The position numbers and the translations under genes were made by a program. Source: a virus (lineage: Duplodnaviria > Heunggongvirae > Uroviricota > Caudoviricetes). Taken from it: a stretch of DNA of 5,364 nt. Below are positions 1 through 5,364 of the stretch, piece after piece. Where the stretch lies: IMG/VR virus record IMGVR_UViG_2875713109_000006, one strand, 5' to 3'. The stretch's first letter is position 1; each line of letters begins with the position of its first letter. The notes under the pieces were generated by a model. That model worked only from the letters and a program-made list of their open reading frames with translations. It searched no databases and was not told the DNA's origin.

Positions 1-276
1 AAGATACCTAGCATAAAGAATGATTGATTTTTGAATGATCTATTTTATGATTTATTGCAATAAAATCCAAGCCATCTATATGGTAAATTGCCATAAAATC
101 AATCAGTTCAATAAATCAGGCTGAAACACGACTTCGATATAACATCAAAGAAAATAAAAATAATATATATAAATCATAAAGATAGAATACTCACAACAAC
201 CTTATCCCCACGAAAAACTGATAAACACTGAAATTCTTTTCAATCTTTTCAGTTTGGGTTTTCCGCAAAGCCACCA
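1..276. other. AT-rich non-coding tract with short repeated motifs (AAATCA, ATGAT) and one near-DnaA-box TTATCCCCA at 202..210
   Basis: All six frames are dense in stop codons. The only ATG-initiated ORF (35..124, 29 aa) has no Shine-Dalgarno and low-complexity composition. Base composition is visibly more AT-rich than the adjacent coding DNA. TTATCCCCA matches the DnaA box consensus TTATNCACA at 8 of 9 positions. Confidence 0.5.
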
Positions 277-342
277 GTGCTGGCGCGAGATGACAGTCTG
301 GTTTGTAGAAAAATAAAACTGAAAAAATTTATCGATCCAGAA

Positions 343-360
343 ACCGCAGGCGGGTGCGGT
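343..360 (-). terminator. Candidate stem-loop (ACCGCA / 6-nt loop / TGCGGT), possible weak terminator for the leftward early operon
   Basis: Perfect 6-bp inverted repeat 343..348 / 355..360. On the - strand the stem is followed by UUUCUGG and, a few nt later, by U-rich runs; the U-tract is not contiguous with the stem, so a classical intrinsic terminator is doubtful. Confidence 0.25.
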
Positions 361-370
361 GTAGTGCCGT

Positions 371-400
371 TTTTGTCTGCGAAAGATTTATTTTGTCTGC
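371..400. repeat. Exact 10-bp tandem direct repeat TTTTGTCTGC (371..380 and 391..400), 20-bp periodicity
   Basis: Read directly from the sequence: ttttgtctgc-gaaagattta-ttttgtctgc. It lies in the non-coding stretch downstream of the exonuclease gene. Confidence 0.6.
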
Positions 401-554
401 ATGTGGCTACCTCAGAGCGTCGCTGTGAATTTGATCTTATTGCGGTGTCGCAGTGGTTACCCGCGATCGTTTTTTCGCAGTTCGGCCTTTTTCTGGCCAG
501 CCACTACTGCATCAAGGTATTTCGGCGCAATCTTTATCGTGTGGATTTTGATTG

Positions 555-1259
555 TCATTTTGCACCGCCTTCTGCAATAGCAAGGATCACACCAAGCGTC
601 AGATTGCAGTCATACAACGCTCTATGTGGTGCACCTTCTCCGGCATCAACCTTAAGCGCCGCCGCTGCATCCACAAGTCGTTTCCAGCGGGTTTTACGGC
701 GTACAACATCCCATTCACCGTTATAATCTGCGTACAGCTGCATTACGCACTCAGGGGTGCATATATCCTCATGCTGTTCATAATCCCCACCAGACTGGCG
801 CAACATACGCGCATCAAATTTTGCGTTATATGCGACCCAGCCTTTACTTGTTAACTCCAATACTTTCGGCAGAATTTCCAACCATGATGGTGCATTAGCA
901 ACCATTTCATCCGTAATACCGTGAATTGCAGTTGCCGCTTCTGGAATAGATTTCGATGGCTTGACCAGCGTATTAAGCAAAACGTAACCAGCACAGTCGA
1001 TGATCGAAATTTCTACAATTTCATCATCAAATCCTAGTCCTGTGGTTTCTGTATCAAGAATGACAAAGCCCTTATCAATCCAGCGCTTTGCTATCTGTTG
1101 TTCGGTTTCCAGACGGTCGGAAAAATACAGAGACTGATCGGTGATCCTCCAACACTGGCGAATCACATCGCGCAACGAAGCCCCTTCTTTAGCTCTGGCA
1201 CCAGAAACCACCCCACCCAAAATGGCCGAAAAAAGTTGATTGCGAGTGCTCAATTCCAT
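555..1259 (-). CDS. DnaQ-like (DEDDh) 3'-5' exonuclease with an N-terminal extension of roughly 60 aa
   Basis: The translation contains the three exonuclease motifs in the right order: [10 protein letters not shown] (Exo I), [10 protein letters not shown] (Exo II), HRALYDCNL (Exo III-epsilon, H-x-A-x-x-D). ATG at 1259..1257 is preceded by AAAGGCGG. The ORF track starts at an in-frame TTG at 1280, which would add 7 aa. The gene overlaps the stop of the upstream 77-aa ORF by 10 nt. Confidence 0.8.
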
Positions 1260-1483
1260 GCCGCACCGCCTTTGCTGCAAATCGCTGCGGCTTCTTCGCG
1301 GATTAACTCAACGATTTCCGTTGCGCTTAAACCTTCATTGGCCGCATGAGTGGCCAGCTTATCCAGACGGGTGGAACACAGATCAGCTGCTGCGGCTTTA
1401 CCTTCCTGCGTGGCTTTGGTGAGCATGGCCAGCAGGTCGGTGCCTGATTTTGTTGCGGGTAAATCCTGACGTGTCATGTGCAT
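1250..1483 (-). CDS. Hypothetical small alanine-rich protein (77 aa)
   Basis: ORF with ATG at 1483..1481 preceded by AAGGAAA at about 7 nt spacing. Its stop overlaps the exonuclease start, suggesting translational coupling. No motif recognised. Confidence 0.55.
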   Translation of the reverse strand: MHMTRQDLPATKSGTDLLAMLTKATQEGKAAAADLCSTRLDKLATHAANEGLSATEIVELIREEAAAICSKGGAAWN

Positions 1484-1512
1484 TTTGGTTTCCTTAAGGC
1501 AAAAGAATCCCC

Positions 1513-1531
1513 GGCCACTTGAACCGTGGCC
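1513..1531 (-). other. Stem-loop GGCCAC / 7-nt loop / GTGGCC in the 67-nt gap between orf133 and orf77
   Basis: Perfect 6-bp GC-rich inverted repeat. On the - strand transcript it is followed by GGGGAUUCUUUUG, an imperfect U-tract. It is the only sizeable intergenic gap in the otherwise tightly packed leftward operon. Confidence 0.3.
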
Positions 1532-1550
1532 AAAAAATTCAGGCTGTTAA

Positions 1551-1952
1551 TTAGTGAAAAGTGGGTTGTACTGTGGCGGCTGAGTAGTTCGGTGCCGGAA
1601 TCAGGTGCAGCTCATAGGTTATCCGCCACCACTCCTGGATCAGCGCTTTTATCTCGCCAACGCCCAACGCCCCGGCTGTATAGAAAATTGCACGAATCCC
1701 CGCCAGCGCTTCTATCTGGGCTTCTTTGCTTTTCGCTTCGCGATATACGCAGCACCAGAAAGCAGCATTGATCGCCAGCCAGTGACGCGGATTTGTCATG
1801 TGTTCAGTGTCGTTGAAGAAGAACGGATGCAAAGCGATACGCCCATTTTTACTGGTGCTTTTCTCTGCAAACGCTAATGCGTAGTTATGCGGGACGCCCC
1901 ACACAGCCAGCTCTGCCCCTAGTGATTTACCTTCAACCGAAATAATGGACAT
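1551..1952 (-). CDS. Hypothetical protein (133 aa), translationally coupled to the upstream gene
   Basis: Its ATG (1952..1950) overlaps the TGA of the 142-aa ORF by one base (TGATG), with AGGGGAA 8 nt upstream. No motif recognised. Position is syntenic with the fil/dhr region of phage 186, but identity is unproven. Confidence 0.6.
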   Translation of the reverse strand: MSIISVEGKSLGAELAVWGVPHNYALAFAEKSTSKNGRIALHPFFFNDTEHMTNPRHWLAINAAFWCCVYREAKSKEAQIEALAGIRAIFYTAGALGVGEIKALIQEWWRITYELHLIPAPNYSAATVQPTFH

Positions 1953-2380
1953 CAGTGATTCCCCTGTTGCTGTAACTTCTGGACAATATGAGGTGCAACC
2001 ACCATCTGCACCCCGCTGCTGCTATAAATTGGATGAACCTTCTTGATTGGGCGGTTCGCGGTACGTTTCGAAAAATCGCTGTCACGTAAACTGCCGAAAC
2101 CTTCAAACGTTAACCGCGCCCGTGAAATGCCCTGGCGCAGTTGAATCATGTCCCGATAGCCCAGGCGTTCATAAAGCTCACGCCAGCAGCACTTGCTTAA
2201 ATGGGCTTTAAATGCCCCGGTACCAGAAGTAACCGCAGCAGCATGAAGTACTACGCCGCGCCACTCCGGTGTCAAGTTGTCCCACCATTCAGCGGCCTCG
2301 CTGCTTTCGCTGAAGTATTTGCGGCGGATCTGTTTTAAATGCTCCAGCCCGCGCTTTTGCTGTTCCTGGCTAATCGCCAT
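1952..2380 (-). CDS. Hypothetical protein (142 aa)
   Basis: ORF with ATG at 2380..2378, starting 9 nt after the stop of the 57-aa ORF. Same strand and tight spacing as the flanking early genes. No motif recognised. Confidence 0.6.
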   Translation of the reverse strand: MAISQEQQKRGLEHLKQIRRKYFSESSEAAEWWDNLTPEWRGVVLHAAAVTSGTGAFKAHLSKCCWRELYERLGYRDMIQLRQGISRARLTFEGFGSLRDSDFSKRTANRPIKKVHPIYSSSGVQMVVAPHIVQKLQQQGNH

Positions 2381-2389
2381 AGCGTCCCC

Positions 2390-2563
2390 CTATAGCCCCA
2401 TCAGACGACGCCACCACGGGCGACGCGGCTGCTGGCCATTGAATTTGTACATGTGGCCAGGGTTCCAGCGCTGACCGTTCGGCAGTTCAATCCAGCCCGT
2501 TGAACCACTGGGCAATTGCATGGCCGGTGATTCGTTTTTCAGGTAAGTGACAAACGCTTTCAT
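2390..2563 (-). CDS. Hypothetical small basic protein (57 aa: MKAFVTYLKNESPAMQLPSGSTGWIELPNGQRWNPGHMYKFNGQQPRRPWWRRLMGL)
   Basis: Not in the supplied ORF track (below its length cut-off); translated by hand. ATG at 2563..2561 is preceded by GAGGGAGA at 3 nt spacing and lies 9 nt after the cII stop. Stop TAG at 2392..2390. Confidence 0.45.
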   Translation of the reverse strand: MKAFVTYLKNESPAMQLPSGSTGWIELPNGQRWNPGHMYKFNGQQPRRPWWRRLMGL

Positions 2564-2572
2564 GGTTCTCCC

Positions 2573-3076
2573 TCACATCAGGCCGGTGGCGTTGGTTGTG
2601 ACCAGATCCACCGCAGCGGCCAAAACCGGCGCAGAGTGAATACGGCTTTCAACGGTATAAGCCAGCACGGATAAGCTACGGATTGCATCTCGGGCACGAT
2701 CCAGAATTTGAGTACGGCGGGCGGCGGTCATATGACCAGCTGATACGGCTTCCCCAGCAATCGCGCCCACACTGGCTGTGGCGCTCAGTGCACACAGTTG
2801 CATGTTGCCTTCTGTTGCATTGTTCACCGGTACGGATGGAAGGCAGTTAATCTGCCCCAGCATCCCATCCAGTAAACGCGCATCTTCGGTGTAATCCGTG
2901 ATAGCCAAAAGTTCATCACAGGTCAGGCGGTGCGGTTGCGCTGGGTTCAGTTTATTACGCAGGATCTGTGGCCTCATACCAACGGCAGCGGCCACATCTT
3001 CAAGATTGTGCTCAATTGCAAATGCTCGGCAAGCCGCATCAAAGTGCGCATGTTTAGAGGTCTGGTAATCAAACAT
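2573..3076 (-). CDS. cII: CII-like transcriptional activator (167 aa), phage 186 CII family
   Basis: N-terminus MFDYQTSKHAHFDAACRAFA and the internal LRNKLNP-QPH segment match my recollection of phage 186 CII, which is of similar length. Strong RBS GGGAGAGG 6 nt upstream of the ATG. Located directly downstream of the Apl-like gene, as in 186. Confidence 0.75.
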   Translation of the reverse strand: MFDYQTSKHAHFDAACRAFAIEHNLEDVAAAVGMRPQILRNKLNPAQPHRLTCDELLAITDYTEDARLLDGMLGQINCLPSVPVNNATEGNMQLCALSATASVGAIAGEAVSAGHMTAARRTQILDRARDAIRSLSVLAYTVESRIHSAPVLAAAVDLVTTNATGLM

Positions 3077-3106
3077 TGTTTGCCTCTCCCTAATCCGTAG
3101 GATGGA

Positions 3107-3328
3107 TTACGCTTTAAGCGAAATGTCACATTCGCTTAAAGCCTGAATAGTGAGCGCGGCCATGTTGACTTCGACCAGGCCTTTCTTCTGCTTACCCTTC
3201 GGCTTAATAGGTAATTTCCCGTATTCGATCAGGTTCCTGGCGGTTTCTTTGTTGGTACCAGTACGGCGGCAATACTCGTCTAAAGGCAGGTATGGCTCTG
3301 GGATGATGATTGTAATGTTCGGACGCAT
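3107..3328 (-). CDS. apl: Apl/Cox-like small HTH protein (excisionase / lytic-side repressor), 73 aa
   Basis: First gene of the leftward operon, divergent from the repressor gene. ATG at 3328..3326 is preceded by GGAG at 8 nt spacing. The N-terminus MRPNITIIIPEPYLPLDEYCRRTGTNKETARNLIEYGKLPI aligns in register with my recollection of the P2 Cox N-terminus. The ORF track extends it to a GTG at 3388 (93 aa); the true start is unresolved. Confidence 0.65.
   Translation of the reverse strand: MRPNITIIIPEPYLPLDEYCRRTGTNKETARNLIEYGKLPIKPKGKQKKGLVEVNMAALTIQALSECDISLKA
3111..3142. promoter_or_regulatory. Perfect 12-bp inverted repeat GCTTTAAGCGAA / 8-bp spacer / TTCGCTTAAAGC inside the last 11 codons of apl
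   Basis: Read directly: gctttaagcgaa-atgtcaca-ttcgcttaaagc. It encodes ALSECDISLKA on the - strand and is not followed by a T-tract on either strand, so it is not a terminator. It lies about 280 bp from the switch. Confidence 0.4.
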
Positions 3329-3447
3329 GAGGCAAACTCCATAAGTTAACCTGTACGGCAATACAGGGCTGTAACTGTCAATATTCACTTAAACCTACAA
3401 AGCGGAGTTTAAACTCACTCCGCGCAAGATTTCAAGGTAAAACTTTC
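3329..3447. promoter_or_regulatory. Divergent apl-cI intergenic region: presumed lysis/lysogeny switch with promoters and operators
   Basis: Contains (i) dyad CCTGTA-N6-TACAGG at 3350..3367; (ii) a perfect 12-bp palindrome GAGTTTAAACTC at 3405..3416 nested in GCGGAGT-N8-ACTCCGC (3402..3423); (iii) a candidate - strand promoter TTGAAA (3435..3430), 16-bp spacer, TTTAAA (3413..3408); (iv) a perfect TTGACA on the - strand (3381..3376) with no matching -10. Promoter assignments are by eye and uncertain. Confidence 0.5.
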
Positions 3448-4026
3448 GTGAATCTACAAATTGAGTTTTCTCATGGCGGAGCTGAGGTACTAGATAGAGT
3501 TATCCAAGCGTATGGATTCAACACAAAACTAGCCCTAGCCGAACATCTTGATATAGCAAGCAGCAGTCTGGCTAACCGGTATAAGAGGGATTTTTTTCCA
3601 GCTGATATCGTTGTTAGATGTATGGCTGAAACAGGAGCTACTCTGGAATGGCTTGCGACTGGACAAGGTAGAAAGTTTAACGATGACGAATTAGACATCA
3701 TGAAATTGCCACGCAAGAAGATTGTGGACGGAAAACTCTATGAGTCTGGTTTCCTAATGCTCGATAAGGTTACTTTTTTACCTGGCAAACCTTTACCGCA
3801 GAATCCTATCTGTGTGATTGATAACACAATGCAATACATTGTTGATCAACACTTTACTGAAGTTTATGACGATGTTTGGCTTGTCGAAGTTGAAGGTAAA
3901 ACCAGCGTTAGAACACTAACACGCATCCCTGTGGGAAAAGTTAGAGTAAGCGGCGTAGGTATGGCTTTTGACTGCGGTATTGACGATATAAAAATCATCG
4001 GCCGCATTGTTCTGACGATTGAATGA
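3448..4026 (+). CDS. cI: CI-type immunity repressor (192 aa), phage 186 CI family
   Basis: Length and N-terminal region (VLDRVIQAYGF...LDIASSSLANRY) match my recollection of 186 CI (192 aa). N-terminal HTH-like segment followed by a C-terminal domain. GTG start at 3448 with AAGGT about 10 nt upstream; there is no in-frame ATG near the N-terminus. Directly upstream of and co-oriented with int. Confidence 0.75.
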   Translation: MNLQIEFSHGGAEVLDRVIQAYGFNTKLALAEHLDIASSSLANRYKRDFFPADIVVRCMAETGATLEWLATGQGRKFNDDELDIMKLPRKKIVDGKLYESGFLMLDKVTFLPGKPLPQNPICVIDNTMQYIVDQHFTEVYDDVWLVEVEGKTSVRTLTRIPVGKVRVSGVGMAFDCGIDDIKIIGRIVLTIE

Positions 4027-4027
4027 A

Positions 4028-5068
4028 ATGAGTGTTCGTAAACTTCCGACAGGCGAATGGATCGCCGACTTCTACACCGTCAACCGTAGTAATGGTAAGA
4101 ACGGGAAGCGCATACGTAAAAAATTTGCCACGAAGGGGGAAGCCCTGGCATTTGAGAACCATACGCTTCAGAAAGTAGACAGTGCGCCCTGGCTGGGTGA
4201 AGGGAAGGACAAACGAACTTTAATAGACCTGATCACAATGTGGTATGAACGCCACGGAGTAGCTTTGCGCAATGGTCAAAAGCGCAAAGACGCTATGACC
4301 TGGGCGGCAGAGTGCATGGGATTCCCGCTAGCTACAGAGTTTAATGCCCAGCTGTTCACGGCCTACCGCGCAAAAAGGCTTGATGGGCATTATGCCCGCA
4401 CTAGCAGAGTATCCAAGGTTTCCCCGAAAACAATGAACCTTGAACATGCTTACTTCCTGGCTATGTTCAACGAGCTGAAACGAATCGGGGAATGGTCAGC
4501 CCCCAACCCACTGGAAAACGTCAGACAGTATCGTACTGATGAAACCGAAATGGCTTTCCTCACTGCTGAAGAAATTGAGCTGCTTTTGCTGGAATGCAAA
4601 CGAAGCAAAGTAAAATACTTGGAGCTAGTCGTAAAAATCTGTCTTGCGACCGGCGCAAGATGGAATGAAGCGGCAACGCTGAAAAGCTCTCAGATCGCAG
4701 GCGATAAAGTTACGTTCGTCAAAACCAAAGGGAAGCGCAACAGAACAATCCCCCTTGATGATGAACTTCTATCCGAATTGCCTGAAACGAAAGGCGCTCT
4801 GTTCCCCAAACCCTGCTATAACGCGTTCCGCTCTGCTTTGGAACGCGCAGGCATTGAACTCCCCTCCGGCCAGCTTACCCATGTACTGCGCCATACATTT
4901 GCCAGCCACTTTATGATGAACGGCGGGAACATTCTGGTTCTGCAAAAAATTCTCGGCCACGCTGACATCACTATGACAATGCGTTATGCCCATTTCGCCC
5001 CAAGCCACCTTGAAGATGCCGTGCGACTTAACCCCTTAAAATGTCGCAAAAATGTCGCGACAGCTTAG
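4028..5068 (+). CDS. int: Tyrosine recombinase / phage integrase, P2/186 Int family (346 aa)
   Basis: Catalytic signature present: LATGARWNEA (box I Arg), HVLRHTFASHF (His-x-x-Arg) and TMRYAHF (Tyr nucleophile). N-terminus resembles P2 Int. ATG at 4028 lies 1 nt after the cI stop TGA (4024..4026). The ORF track begins at an in-frame TTG at 4019, which would overlap cI by 8 nt. Confidence 0.9.
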   Translation: MSVRKLPTGEWIADFYTVNRSNGKNGKRIRKKFATKGEALAFENHTLQKVDSAPWLGEGKDKRTLIDLITMWYERHGVALRNGQKRKDAMTWAAECMGFPLATEFNAQLFTAYRAKRLDGHYARTSRVSKVSPKTMNLEHAYFLAMFNELKRIGEWSAPNPLENVRQYRTDETEMAFLTAEEIELLLLECKRSKVKYLELVVKICLATGARWNEAATLKSSQIAGDKVTFVKTKGKRNRTIPLDDELLSELPETKGALFPKPCYNAFRSALERAGIELPSGQLTHVLRHTFASHFMMNGGNILVLQKILGHADITMTMRYAHFAPSHLEDAVRLNPLKCRKNVATA

Positions 5069-5235
5069 AAATACTGCCGAATACTCACAGATATTAACTA
5101 ACGTAACTTATTGATAACACTGTAAGTTATTGTTTTTCGTAGATAGTTGATGCTTTATAATATAGCCTGTGCTATATCTGTATGTAATGCAATCATCCCT
5201 CAAGGATCGACGGGATTAGCAAGTCAGGAGGTCTT
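5069..5235. other. AT-rich spacer downstream of int; candidate att / prophage-end region
   Basis: In P2-like phages the attachment site lies just beyond the 3' end of int. The region holds direct repeats TAACTTATTG (5103..5112) and TAAGTTATTG (5123..5132) and AATACT (5070..5075, 5080..5085), plus a TATAAT hexamer at 5156..5161. No tRNA-like structure was seen and the core cannot be identified from the sequence alone. Confidence 0.3.
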
Positions 5236-5364
5236 ATGAATGAGTTCAAGAGGTGTATGCGCGTGTTTAGTCATTCTCCCTTTAAAGTACGGTTAATGCT
5301 GCTCTCTATGTTGTGCGATATGGTCAACAACAAACCGCAGCAAGATAAACCTTCCGATAAATAG
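5236..5364 (+). CDS. Small ORF (42 aa: MNEFKRCMRVFSHSPFKVRLMLLSMLCDMVNNKPQQDKPSDK), function unknown
   Basis: ATG at 5236 is preceded by a consensus AGGAGG (5226..5231) at 4 nt spacing. The TAG stop is the last three bases of the window. No motif recognised; it may be a host gene at the prophage junction or a phage moron. Confidence 0.4.
   Translation: MNEFKRCMRVFSHSPFKVRLMLLSMLCDMVNNKPQQDKPSDK

Follow-up and report, generated by a model that had tools for sequence, protein, structure and literature searches.

A phage 186-type lysis-lysogeny switch, with promoters predicted face to face, in a P2-like prophage element of Escherichia coli

The window analyzed here, a whole stretch of 5,364 nucleotides, raises the question of which kind of switch governs a repressor gene and an integrase gene on one strand and a Cox/Apl-like gene and cII on the other, and where the promoters of the two sets of genes lie. 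Our analysis identifies the region as the switch between lysis and lysogeny in a P2-like (Peduoviridae) prophage; its regulatory region is of the phage 186 type and its promoters are predicted to face each other, a reading to which we give a probability of about 85%. A switch of this kind is already known, ordinary, and well understood. Computed here were the homologies, the order of the genes and their start codons, the geometry of the motifs, the invariance of synonymous sites, and the structure of the attachment site, while promoter activity, the assignment of proteins to sites, translational coupling, and transcriptional interference are proposed by analogy with 186 and P2. The genes and junctions on which the argument is built are as follows.

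457-458, unstranded: junction of an internal deletion of the prophage (loss of 23.9 kb), from comparison with strain EC101
2573-3076, minus strand: cII, the establishment-promoter activator, from PF06892 and homology to 186 CII
3107-3328, minus strand: Cox/Apl-type gene of 73 amino acids, first of the early lytic operon, from PHROG 575 and fold
3448-4026, plus strand: cI immunity repressor gene of 192 amino acids with a GTG start, from Pfam and homology to 186 CI
4024-4030, plus strand: junction TGA-A-ATG of the cI stop and the int start, by direct reading
4028-5068, plus strand: int, tyrosine integrase of 346 amino acids, homologous to 186 Int from M1 to M1

Direct reading of the sequence places the 192-codon cI open reading frame (ORF) at 3448 to 4026 on the plus strand with a GTG start, its TGA stop at 4024 to 4026, a single A at 4027, and the int ATG at 4028 to 4030, from which an ORF of 346 codons runs to 5068; an in-frame TTG is present upstream at 4019. 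The sequence-only reading had described cI and int as co-oriented and separated by 1 nt, which this confirms. On the minus strand, the cox-like ORF ends at 3107 and has two possible starts, ATG 3328 and GTG 3388, and is followed by the cII ORF of 167 codons (2573 to 3076); the noncoding gap from ATG 3328 to GTG 3448 is 119 nt. Pfam matches and the RefSeq annotation of E. coli PSS-07, which gives the same gene coordinates and to which the window is 100% identical, indicate that these ORFs are real genes and not chance ORFs.

By sequence comparison, the element of PSS-07 is an 8.6-kb deletion remnant adjoining E. coli mntS, with both att sites kept. Window positions 1 to 457 and 458 to 5364 each match E. 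coli EC101 at 100%, where they lie 23,944 bp apart; the 23.9-kb deletion removed the C terminus of the DUF3850 protein, dam, replication gene A, ogr, and all virion genes, and RefSeq flags the DUF3850 gene of the PSS-07 element as truncated. The element had been called a temperate phage; in the source genome it is a remnant without replication and virion genes. Intact prophages of other strains contain identical switch modules. Of 5,426 complete E. coli genomes, 6 have this immunity type, which makes it a rare one in the species. Because the remnant retains the two att sites together with the repressor, the integrase, the excisionase-like gene, and a defense pair resembling Shosta, it is plausible as a domesticated immunity and defense island, and it may still be excisable. 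A tRNA scan found none, and an Rfam scan gave no credible RNA family, its one chance snoRNA match (E = 0.64) falling far under the gathering score.

The assignment to the 186 type is carried by the proteins. CI matches Pfam Phage_CI_repr (PF07022, 2.5e-25) and Phage_CI_C (PF16452, 6e-31), and BLASTP aligns it to 186 CI, a protein of equal length, with 41% identity over 178 amino acids; its PDB matches 2fjr (8.6e-36) and 2fkd (4.6e-13) are both 186 CI. These searches together describe a two-domain repressor of the 186 type, with an N-terminal helix-turn-helix and a C-terminal oligomerization domain. CII matches Phage_CP76 (PF06892, 1.3e-46), is 44% identical to 186 CII over 160 amino acids, and is encoded directly after the cox-like gene, with a gap of 30 nt past the cox-like stop that equals that of 186. 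Int matches Int_N (6.6e-31) and Phage_integrase (5.1e-25) and is 62% identical to 186 Int, and a homologue of 186 Fil is present by Pfam. The claim that the element is 186-like (CI plus CII) and not P2-like is thus borne out, and the 192-amino-acid protein, on whose homology to 186 CI that claim had been staked, is indeed such a homologue. A switch of the lambda CI/Cro type was rejected, as no Peptidase_S24 or Cro family match was obtained and the predicted geometry is face to face. At the nucleotide level, megablast comparison of the window with 50,697 phage records gave no match to 186, the best matches being Quadragintavirus phages, so that by the nucleotide criterion, with no similarity to phage 186 DNA, the element stands outside the genus Eganvirus.

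The 73-amino-acid protein is predicted to be an excisionase and switch regulator. Its residues 1 to 68 align with positions 1 to 68 of PHROG 575, "Cox-like excisionase and repressor" (1.7e-27), the family that 186 Apl likewise matches best, and its AF2 model (pLDDT 83) has P2 Cox (4LHF) as the top PDB fold, with a probability of 1.0 and TM scores of 0.62/0.57. BLASTP gave no alignment of this protein to 186 Apl or P2 Cox, and searches of Pfam, NCBIfam, and PDB sequences gave no Pfam family, only subthreshold HTH_17/excisionase hints. Of the alignments to 186 proposed for the four proteins, therefore, those of CI, CII, and Int were obtained and that of the Apl candidate was not. As judged from profile and modeled fold, the levels at which the relationship is seen, the protein is a distant Cox/Apl relative belonging to a separate subfamily. 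Its start had been considered ambiguous; both codons exist, and the question is settled in favor of ATG 3328, since PHROG position 1 falls on this codon, most full-length database clusters of the family have 73 amino acids, and all aligned homologues begin with M-R. GTG 3388 was rejected on these grounds and also because a frame opening there would extend across both the predicted start of pR and the hairpin of the leader. In addition, ATG 3328 is preceded at a distance of 8 nt by a GGAG.

The sites predicted between and around these genes are the following.

3050-3076, unstranded: predicted CII site ATGTTTA-N13-CAAACAT, its end coinciding with the cII start codon, from the 186 pattern
3091-3109, unstranded: palindrome TAATCC-N7-GGATTA, which takes in both the candidate pE -10 and the stop codon of cox, at the position of 186 FR
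3098-3103, plus strand: candidate pE -10 TAGGAT, from its geometry relative to the 186 annotation
3111-3142, unstranded: inverted repeat of two perfectly matching 12-bp arms set 8 nt apart, in the last 12 codons of the cox-like gene
3310-3338, plus strand: predicted pL, -35 TTGTAA (3310-3315), 17-nt spacer, -10 CAAACT (3333-3338), from the 186 register
3350-3367, unstranded: stem-loop CCTGTA-CGGCAA-TACAGG, where the transcripts predicted from pR and pL overlap
3358-3388, unstranded: candidate Cox-box array with a period of about 10 bp (AATACA at 3360, AATATT at 3380)
3402-3423, unstranded: palindrome GCGGAGT-N8-ACTCCGC covering the pR -10, either a candidate operator for CI or a cI-leader hairpin
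3406-3435, minus strand: predicted pR, -35 TTGAAA (3435-3430), 18-nt spacer, -10 TAAACT (3411-3406), from a promoter scan

The pR-like site (9 of 12 matches) is the only minus-strand promoter match between 2950 and 4200, and its position relative to the cI start equals that of 186 pR. Predicted pL has its -35 inside the cox-like ORF and the cox start codon in its spacer, which matches the register of 186 pL (TTGCGA, 10 nt, CAT, 4 nt, CATGAT). Codons 5 (ATT) and 6 (ACA) of cox, which underlie the -35, are invariant in 76 of 76 distinct coding sequences, compared with a top-codon share of 0.37 to 0.49 at other fourfold codons. The pL -10 agrees with only three of the six consensus positions, and it overlaps the cox ribosome-binding region, which offers a second explanation for its conservation. 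From these positions, pR and pL are predicted to face each other with starts about 55 bp apart and overlapping transcripts. In P2-like phages the promoters are face to face and 40 to 60 bp apart, with Apl/Cox operators between them (PMC7498355). The two gene pairs had been said to diverge from a common intergenic region; this holds for the genes themselves, but their promoters are predicted to converge.

The predicted CII site consists of two 7-bp half-sites 20 bp apart, shows no mismatch to the pattern of the annotated 186 site in the same register to the cII ATG, and is conserved in seven of seven phages compared. The candidate pE -10 lies 22 nt past the proximal half-site, equal to the distance of TAAAGT in 186. 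Around it, relatives retain the TAAT..ATTA stem of the palindrome at 3091 to 3109, with one co-varying pair; as an immunity-specific analogue of FR this palindrome was discarded, since it is identical in ESSI2_ev015 (ev015 below) despite a different CI. The neighboring inverted repeat at 3111 to 3142 folds as RNA at -18.1 kcal/mol (z = -4.5), and its wobble exceptions favor the cox-sense strand (26 G.U versus 4 A.C). Its covariation is weak, with 85.8% of cells paired versus 83.8% in shuffles and one clear co-varying pair, which joins two synonymous Ser codons, and it is accordingly a poor candidate for a co-varying RNA.

A mosaic boundary with strain 1919D3 at 3368/3369 places the immunity-specific operators and pR within 3369 to 3447. 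A swap of the cI N-terminal domain alone between the window and 1919D3 was rejected, as the whole cI gene has diverged. The palindrome at 3402 to 3423 lies within the immunity-specific segment that starts at 3369, and it changes symmetrically from GGAGT/ACTCC to GAAGT/ACTTC in relatives sharing the CI recognition helix. Candidate CI operators at pR comprise this palindrome and repeated TAAAC and CTACAA motifs. The 186 type also has distal CI operators, FL and FR, some 300 bp to each side of pR, together with a CI wheel that is a 14-mer. Palindrome-based searches of cI and of the cox-cII junction for flanking operators of the FL/FR type found no operator-like repeat shared with pR.

At the other end of the lysogenic genes, GTG 3448 is the sole in-frame start ahead of the helix-turn-helix domain of cI and is conserved in five related loci. 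No Shine-Dalgarno match was detected upstream of the int ATG at the cI-int junction, and among distinct junctions, those of 33 relatives place int between -4 and +21 nt relative to the cI stop. The int start had likewise been regarded as ambiguous. TTG 4019 does exist but was dismissed in favor of ATG 4028, since 186 Int aligns from M1 and an in-frame TAA directly before the int ATG of relative L027 excludes an upstream start there. The further proposal that int is probably translated from the repressor transcript agrees with the tight junction, which fits cotranscription and coupled translation as in 186.

Between the opposing promoters, 21 nt upstream of the cox ATG, the stem-loop at 3350 to 3367 combines changing arms with a conserved 6-nt loop. 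In an alignment of 37 distinct relatives, pairing holds in 96.4% of cells and all six pairs change on both sides, with 57 cells changed on both sides versus 17.4 ± 5.1 in shuffles, while slid controls are 13 to 43% paired; in the same relatives the arms are independent of CI type and of Cox sequence. This is a previously undescribed feature. That it is an unrecognized RNA-level component of this class of face-to-face switch is a tentative suggestion, which we put at well below even odds. It might act as a pause hairpin, in which case the active site of the pR polymerase would stand near 3339, over the pL -10, and pausing there would strengthen the occlusion of pL; GGUUAACUUAU followed by G agrees with the G-10/Y-1/G+1 pause motif. 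Alternatively, it might bring the pR and pL transcripts, whose 5' ends are complementary, into kissing-loop contact, or it might stabilize the cox or cI leader.

The alternative to an RNA role is that the inverted repeat is a protein operator, bound by CI, Cox, or Int, and not a nucleic acid hairpin. In favor of this, one of the periodic ATTGCC boxes falls on the loop and the inner bases of the repeat, symmetrical change is also seen in palindromic operators when their protein changes, and 186 has Apl sites at the corresponding location. Against it, a single cluster of CI N-terminal domains (at least 95% identical) has four different stems, CTGTA stems accompany 12 or more types of CI, and Cox proteins with identical helix-turn-helix and wing carry CTGTA, CGATA, CGACA, or CCACA stems. 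The two lineages with non-Watson-Crick exceptions, moreover, show G.U on the cox-sense strand, and we consider an operator unlikely.

Among the remaining alternatives, a P2-type switch with a small C repressor and no CII has next to no probability. Despite the resemblance of the virion and early genes to those of P2, and of the Cox-like fold to P2 Cox, the repressor is a two-domain 186-type CI of 192 amino acids accompanied by CII and Fil, whereas P2 C has 99 amino acids and lies 115 nt from int; the Pfam and BLASTP homologies of CI and CII to 186 refute it. Of the two switch types of P2-like phages, cII belongs to the 186 type (PMC3448106). A lambda-like pair of back-to-back promoters, both wholly within the 119-nt gap, would suit the divergence of the genes, the sufficient length of the gap, and the poor pL -10. 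It is nevertheless very improbable: the sole good minus-strand match sits in the gap on the side nearest cI and is directed toward cox, so that its transcript must cross the whole gap, the pL hexamers are set about the cox ATG in the register of 186, synonymous positions beneath the -35 do not vary, and the characterized P2-like switches are all face to face (PMC7498355, PMC3448106). Independent expression of int from a promoter in the 3' end of cI is a little less remote but still improbable. TTGACT-16-AAAAAT at 3968 to 3995, which has 9 of 12 matches and precedes the int ATG by about 33 nt, would allow a degree of separate int transcription, but the scan yields about as many sites in shuffles (2 found, 1.8 expected), and this one lies in the codons of the conserved FDCGIDDIKIIGR motif, which makes its conservation uninformative. 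The 1-nt gap and the missing ribosome-binding site favor coupling, and 186 int belongs to the pL/pE operon. An int-lacZ fusion serves as a reporter of leftward transcription (PMC7708051).

The sites proposed for Int and Cox beside the attachment site are listed below.

5040-5058, plus strand: tandem AATGTCGC repeats, candidate arm-type sites of Int (P' arm), by motif
5070-5095, plus strand: three RATAYT boxes with exact 10-bp spacing, candidate Cox (excisionase) sites, by pattern match
5104-5116, minus strand: IHF-consensus match TATCAATAAGTTA, by pattern match only
5152-5166, unstranded: attR core GCTTTATAATATAGC, from which host DNA continues

The arrangement AATGTCGC-AAA-AATGTCGC is also found in the attL arm (locus L004, about position 39550). 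The RATAYT triple matches once in the window versus 0.01 expected, for a pattern defined after the site had been seen. Empty-site genomes align from 5152, the attB of K-12 is GCTATATAATATAGC, and the core is repeated at attL. In the switch, the boxes AATACA and AATATT read ATTGCC and ATTGAC on the cox-sense strand, and relatives have three ATTGCC-type boxes here with 10- to 11-bp spacing. The same boxes recur in the int-proximal arm of ev015 and Yen0616, a degree of sharing reached in 20 of 500 and 0 of 500 shuffles, respectively; in the window alone it is not significant (144 of 500 shuffles). The Cox-like protein is predicted to occupy boxes with a period of about 10 bp both between the promoters and beside attR, as excisionase and as switch regulator.

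Taken together with what is known of 186 and P2, the 186-type reading suggests the following mode of operation. The lytic operon would be read on the minus strand from pR, by the cI start, into the genes for the winged-helix protein of the Cox/Apl type, CII, Fil, and further early genes, and a strong pR should suppress pL through transcriptional interference. During establishment, the lysogenic operon of cI and int, on the plus strand, would be read from the CII-activated pE near the cII start, and for maintenance from the weak promoter pL. CI bound over pR would switch the lytic genes off and relieve the interference on pL. Lacking a ribosome-binding site of its own 1 base past the cI stop, int would most likely be made by ribosomes finishing cI.

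The geometry of the 186 switch is kept almost base for base across phages whose proteins are only 40 to 60% identical, so that the switch in which transcriptional interference has been studied best can have its design rules compared between lineages. For annotation, gene starts, likely promoters, the CII site, and the att site are fixed for a rare Peduoviridae immunity type. The co-varying hairpin is the sole element here that could add to the understanding of such switches.

The closest classified DNA relatives are ESSI2_ev015, ev040, and ev129 (Peduoviridae, Quadragintavirus), with 93 to 95% identity over the early genes. They share the architecture, the 73-amino-acid Cox-like family (64%), a CI 70% identical, and an identical cII-cox junction, and differ in the immunity region and in the operators of pR. 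The integration site of ev015 is a tRNA gene, its cI and int genes have 1 nt in common, and its hairpin arms are GTTGAATG/CATTCAAC. P2 (C/Pe-Pc/cox) has in common with the element face-to-face promoters, predicted in the latter, a winged-helix recombination directionality factor (RDF) of the Cox type as the first early gene, RDF sites at both switch and att, which in the element are candidates, and the fold of 4LHF, and differs in its C repressor of unrelated origin, its lack of CII and Fil, and its C-int gap. Compared with coliphage 186 (Eganvirus), DNA similarity is undetectable and the proteins are only 41 to 62% identical, the RDF is of a different subfamily without pairwise similarity to Apl (87 amino acids), and the intergenic gap is 119 nt instead of 129 nt. 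The cI-int gap of 1 nt without a Shine-Dalgarno sequence corresponds to a 1-nt overlap with GAGG in 186, no orf69 follows int, the attachment site lies upstream of mntS instead of in a tRNA-Ile gene, no sites of the FL/FR type were recognized, and the co-varying leader hairpin is absent from 186. What the two share is the order and orientation int-cI/pR-pL/apl-cII-fil, a CI of the same length and two-domain type, homologous CII, Fil, and Int, abutting cI and int genes, predicted pL hexamers straddling the first codons of the RDF gene, a predicted pR adjacent to the cI start, CII half-sites ATGTTTR-N13-CAAACAT ending on the cII ATG, and, beside int, the order of candidate arm sites, candidate RDF boxes, IHF-like site, and core that characterizes the right arm of 186 attP.

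The window is 100% identical to positions 3122702 to 3128065 of the chromosome of E. coli PSS-07, and each feature described in the sequence-only reading (the open reading frames [ORFs], the TGA-A-ATG junction, and the alternative start codons) is present in it. The genes and predicted regulatory elements are as follows.

2573-3076, - strand: cII, 167 aa, from ORF reading
3050-3076: predicted CII site, ATGTTTA-N13-CAAACAT, in the same register as in phage 186
3098-3103: candidate -10 (TAGGAT) of the CII-activated promoter pE, 22 nt beyond the predicted CII site
3107-3328, - strand: small cox-like ORF ending at 3107, possible starts ATG 3328 or GTG 3388, from ORF reading
around the cox start codon, + strand: predicted lysogenic promoter pL, TTGTAA, 10 nt, CAT, 4 nt, CAAACT
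3350-3367: stem-loop CCTGTA-CGGCAA-TACAGG, 21 nt ahead of the cox ATG, where the predicted pR and pL transcripts overlap
3435-3406, - strand: predicted lytic promoter pR, TTGAAA-18-TAAACT, the only - strand sigma-70 match
3448-4026, + strand: repressor cI, 192 aa, GTG start, TGA at 4024-4026
4028-5068, + strand: int, 346 aa, ATG start after a single A (4027) following the cI stop; in-frame TTG at 4019

In RefSeq the four genes are labelled CI, integrase, "regulator," and CII family protein. The 192-aa protein is a homologue of 186 CI: it carries two 186-CI Pfam domains (2.5e-25 and 6e-31), is equal in length to 186 CI and 41% identical to it over 178 aa, and its PDB matches are the 186 CI structures 2fjr (8.6e-36) and 2fkd. 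The 167-aa protein matches PF06892 at 1.3e-46 and is 44% identical to 186 CII, the gene directly downstream of cII encodes a Fil homologue, and the integrase is 62% identical to 186 Int. P2-like phages have two types of regulatory region, P2 and 186, of which the latter is marked by a large CI and an extra cII (PMC3448106). The regulatory region of this element is of the 186 type, with both marks present and CI, CII, and Int all aligning to the 186 proteins; the initial observation is confirmed and its interpretation as 186-like rather than P2-like supported.

The weakest part of that interpretation is the Apl/Cox-like label of the 73-aa protein, which is backed by PHROG 575 and the predicted fold but not by pairwise similarity. 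BLASTP against 186 Apl and P2 Cox returned no similarity, and a Pfam search assigned no family. Against PHROG 575, "Cox-like excisionase and repressor," the protein scores 1.7e-27; 186 Apl too has its best match there (2.8e-9), and P2 Cox a secondary one. From 74 homologues AlphaFold gave a model (pLDDT 83) laid out as strand-helix-turn-helix-wing-strand-helix. In the PDB it is best matched by the crystal structure of P2 Cox (4LHF), with the Xis and RdfS excisionases next. Because of the PHROG 575 match and the match of the modelled fold to 4LHF, the protein is classed with the Cox/Apl recombination directionality factors as a distant member. Its family is widespread in Enterobacterales, where "regulator" is the only annotation.

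The ambiguity raised over the cox and int starts is settled in favor of ATG 3328 and ATG 4028. The Met at 3328 aligns with position 1 of the PHROG profile, homologues in phages and related loci start with MRPNITI or a near variant, M-R opens all 74 aligned proteins, 73 aa is the length of most full-length database clusters, and a GGAG is found 8 nt before the ATG. A start at GTG 3388 would fall upstream of the point where pR transcription is predicted to begin. For int, Met1 of 186 Int aligns with the Met at 4028, and a TTG-4019-type start is excluded in L027, a relative sharing the Int N terminus, where the cI stop codon is in frame directly before the ATG. GTG 3448 is the sole in-frame cI start before the HTH domain and is kept in five related loci.

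The sequence-only reading had the two gene pairs diverging from a common intergenic region. The genes do diverge, but the promoters, predicted to be face-to-face, almost certainly do not. The predicted pR, directed toward cox, is separated from the cI start by 13 nt, exactly the place occupied by 186 pR, and the predicted pL is in register with pL as annotated in 186 (TTGCGA, 10 nt, CAT, 4 nt, CATGAT). Its -35 hexamer falls in cox codons 5 to 7. All 76 distinct cox coding sequences have ATT as codon 5 and ACA as codon 6, a four-fold-degenerate one, while the commonest codon accounts for 37 to 49% at the other four-fold codons of cox. Such frozen codons fit a promoter -35 embedded in coding sequence. 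The frozen synonymous sites span 3310-3321, cox codons 4 to 7. The predicted start points, ~3345 and ~3399, are ~55 bp apart, within the 40 to 60 bp of face-to-face promoters in P2-like phages (PMC7498355). In 186, pR interferes with pL and CI relieves the interference by repressing pR (PMC3675496); by analogy, pR would here interfere with pL until repressed by CI. In the 186 record the CII site (ATGTTTG-N13-CAAACAT) begins on the cII ATG, and TAAAGT lies at the same 22-nt distance from it as TAGGAT here; a CII-type site is kept in seven of seven compared phages. Where 186 has its FR site, the window has a palindrome, TAATCC-N7-GGATTA (3091-3109), that takes in both the candidate pE -10 and the stop codon of cox; it is the same in the Quadragintavirus phage ESSI2_ev015, whose CI differs.

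Among 37 distinct stem-loop sequences drawn from 94 related loci, the arms vary (CCGATA, GGATA, CCACA, CGACA, CTGACA, TTGAATG, and others) yet remain complementary around a loop that is kept: 96.4% of cells are paired, all six pairs are changed on both sides, and double changes number 57 cells versus 17.4 +/- 5.1 in shuffles, with slid controls 13 to 43% paired. Four different stems occur within one cluster of CI N-terminal domains (>=95% identity), and four among Cox proteins whose HTH and wing are identical, so the arms vary independently of both CI type and Cox sequence. Non-Watson-Crick exceptions occur in two lineages, as G.U on the cox-sense strand. The pattern indicates a nucleic-acid structure; the simplest form would be an RNA hairpin in the leader transcribed from pR, whose complement the predicted pL transcript carries at its 5' end. 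The hairpin was found neither in Rfam nor by literature search. Its conserved 6-nt loop coincides with one periodic ATTGCC box. A second palindrome, a perfect 12-bp inverted repeat at 3111-3142 within the last 12 codons of the cox-like gene, is strongly conserved with weak covariation, its total being slightly higher than in shuffles. Two synonymous Ser codons co-vary there (AGC/TCG to AGT/TCA), and wobble exceptions favor the cox-sense strand.

Strain 1919D3 has int, cox, and early genes as in the window and a different cI; homology ends abruptly at 3368/3369 and returns where int begins, and therefore the immunity-specific operators and pR lie within 3369-3447. This mosaic boundary directly follows the hairpin. 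The cox gene, pL, and the hairpin recur in some 15 E. coli genomes whose pR/operator/cI cassette differs, and the window's cI allele occurs in only 6 of 5,426 complete genomes. Candidate CI operators in 3369-3447 are the palindrome GCGGAGT-N8-ACTCCGC over the pR -10 and repeated TAAAC and CTACAA motifs; a search for equivalents of FL and FR, the distal CI operators of 186, found none. Relatives carry three ATTGCC-type boxes between the promoters, spaced 10 to 11 bp, which in ev015 and Yen0616 are repeated right after int. Box sharing between switch and int-proximal arm beat 480/500 (ev015) and 500/500 (Yen0616) shuffles, with 186 as positive control (25/500); in the window itself it was not significant (144/500 shuffles). 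In the attR arm three RATAYT boxes lie at intervals of exactly 10 bp, flanked by an IHF-consensus match and tandem AATGTCGC repeats, the latter present in the attL arm too; the order of elements is that of the 186 attP right arm.

That cI and int are co-oriented and separated by 1 nt (TGA A ATG) is read directly in the sequence, whereas in 186 they overlap by 1 nt (TAATG) with GAGG upstream. Neither a Shine-Dalgarno match at the int start nor a terminator-like site between cI and int was found. A promoter-like TTGACT-16-AAAAAT (3968-3995) in the cI 3' end, ~33 nt upstream of the int ATG, is not above chance expectation and overlies conserved codons. Counted from the cI stop, int is placed at -4 to +21 nt in 33 distinct junctions of relatives. 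Co-transcription with termination-reinitiation is the most likely reading. The other 30 of 63 distinct cI-downstream junctions have no int-like start within 40 nt of the cI stop (for example L006 1193-1765, L007 1071-1769, L028, and L033, loci of related prophages). Many of these have an extra ORF after cI, with its own ribosome-binding site and the N terminus M-I/L-D-Y-K-T-A-S, inside the lysogenic operon.

The integration site of the prophage (core GCT(A/T)TATAATATAGC) is 70 nt upstream of mntS, attL and attR are both present, and PSS-07 has just 8.6 kb between mntR and mntS. Relative to the intact EC101 prophage, in which the two sides of 457/458 are 23,944 bp apart, a 23.9-kb segment containing dam, replication gene A, ogr, and all virion genes is deleted at that point; PSS-07 therefore retains only the early/immunity region and attL-proximal cargo, and the element cannot replicate or form particles. 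The switch genes are presumably functional, since they are identical to the copies in intact prophages. Left of the window are a Shosta-like defence pair (ShosA 2e-52, ShosT 4.7e-10) and a DUF6680 gene; the pair is DprA-like and PRTase-like, and together with the DUF6680 gene it lies beside the remnant's attL (L004, 39658-42702). Within 5152-5236 the att core, which contains a perfect TATAAT, is next to an ATAGC-N4-GCTAT inverted repeat, and integration replaces the DNA upstream of the core. From the end of int to mntS no + strand terminator-like site was found, so transcription of the lysogenic operon might continue into mntS. Positions 350-415 are 88% similar to bases 1 to 66 of the Cronobacter phage ESSI-2 genome record, a G-rich stretch, GGCGGGTGCGG, lies nearby, and this area is possibly the prophage cos region.

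Phage 186 is absent from the megablast matches of the window, and the element is not phage 186 at the DNA level. The closest classified phages are the prophage-derived Quadragintavirus genomes ESSI2_ev129, ev015, and ev040, and the identical gene order is found in at least five Peduoviridae genera. The element belongs to a well-known kind, its potential novelty being limited to the co-varying leader hairpin.
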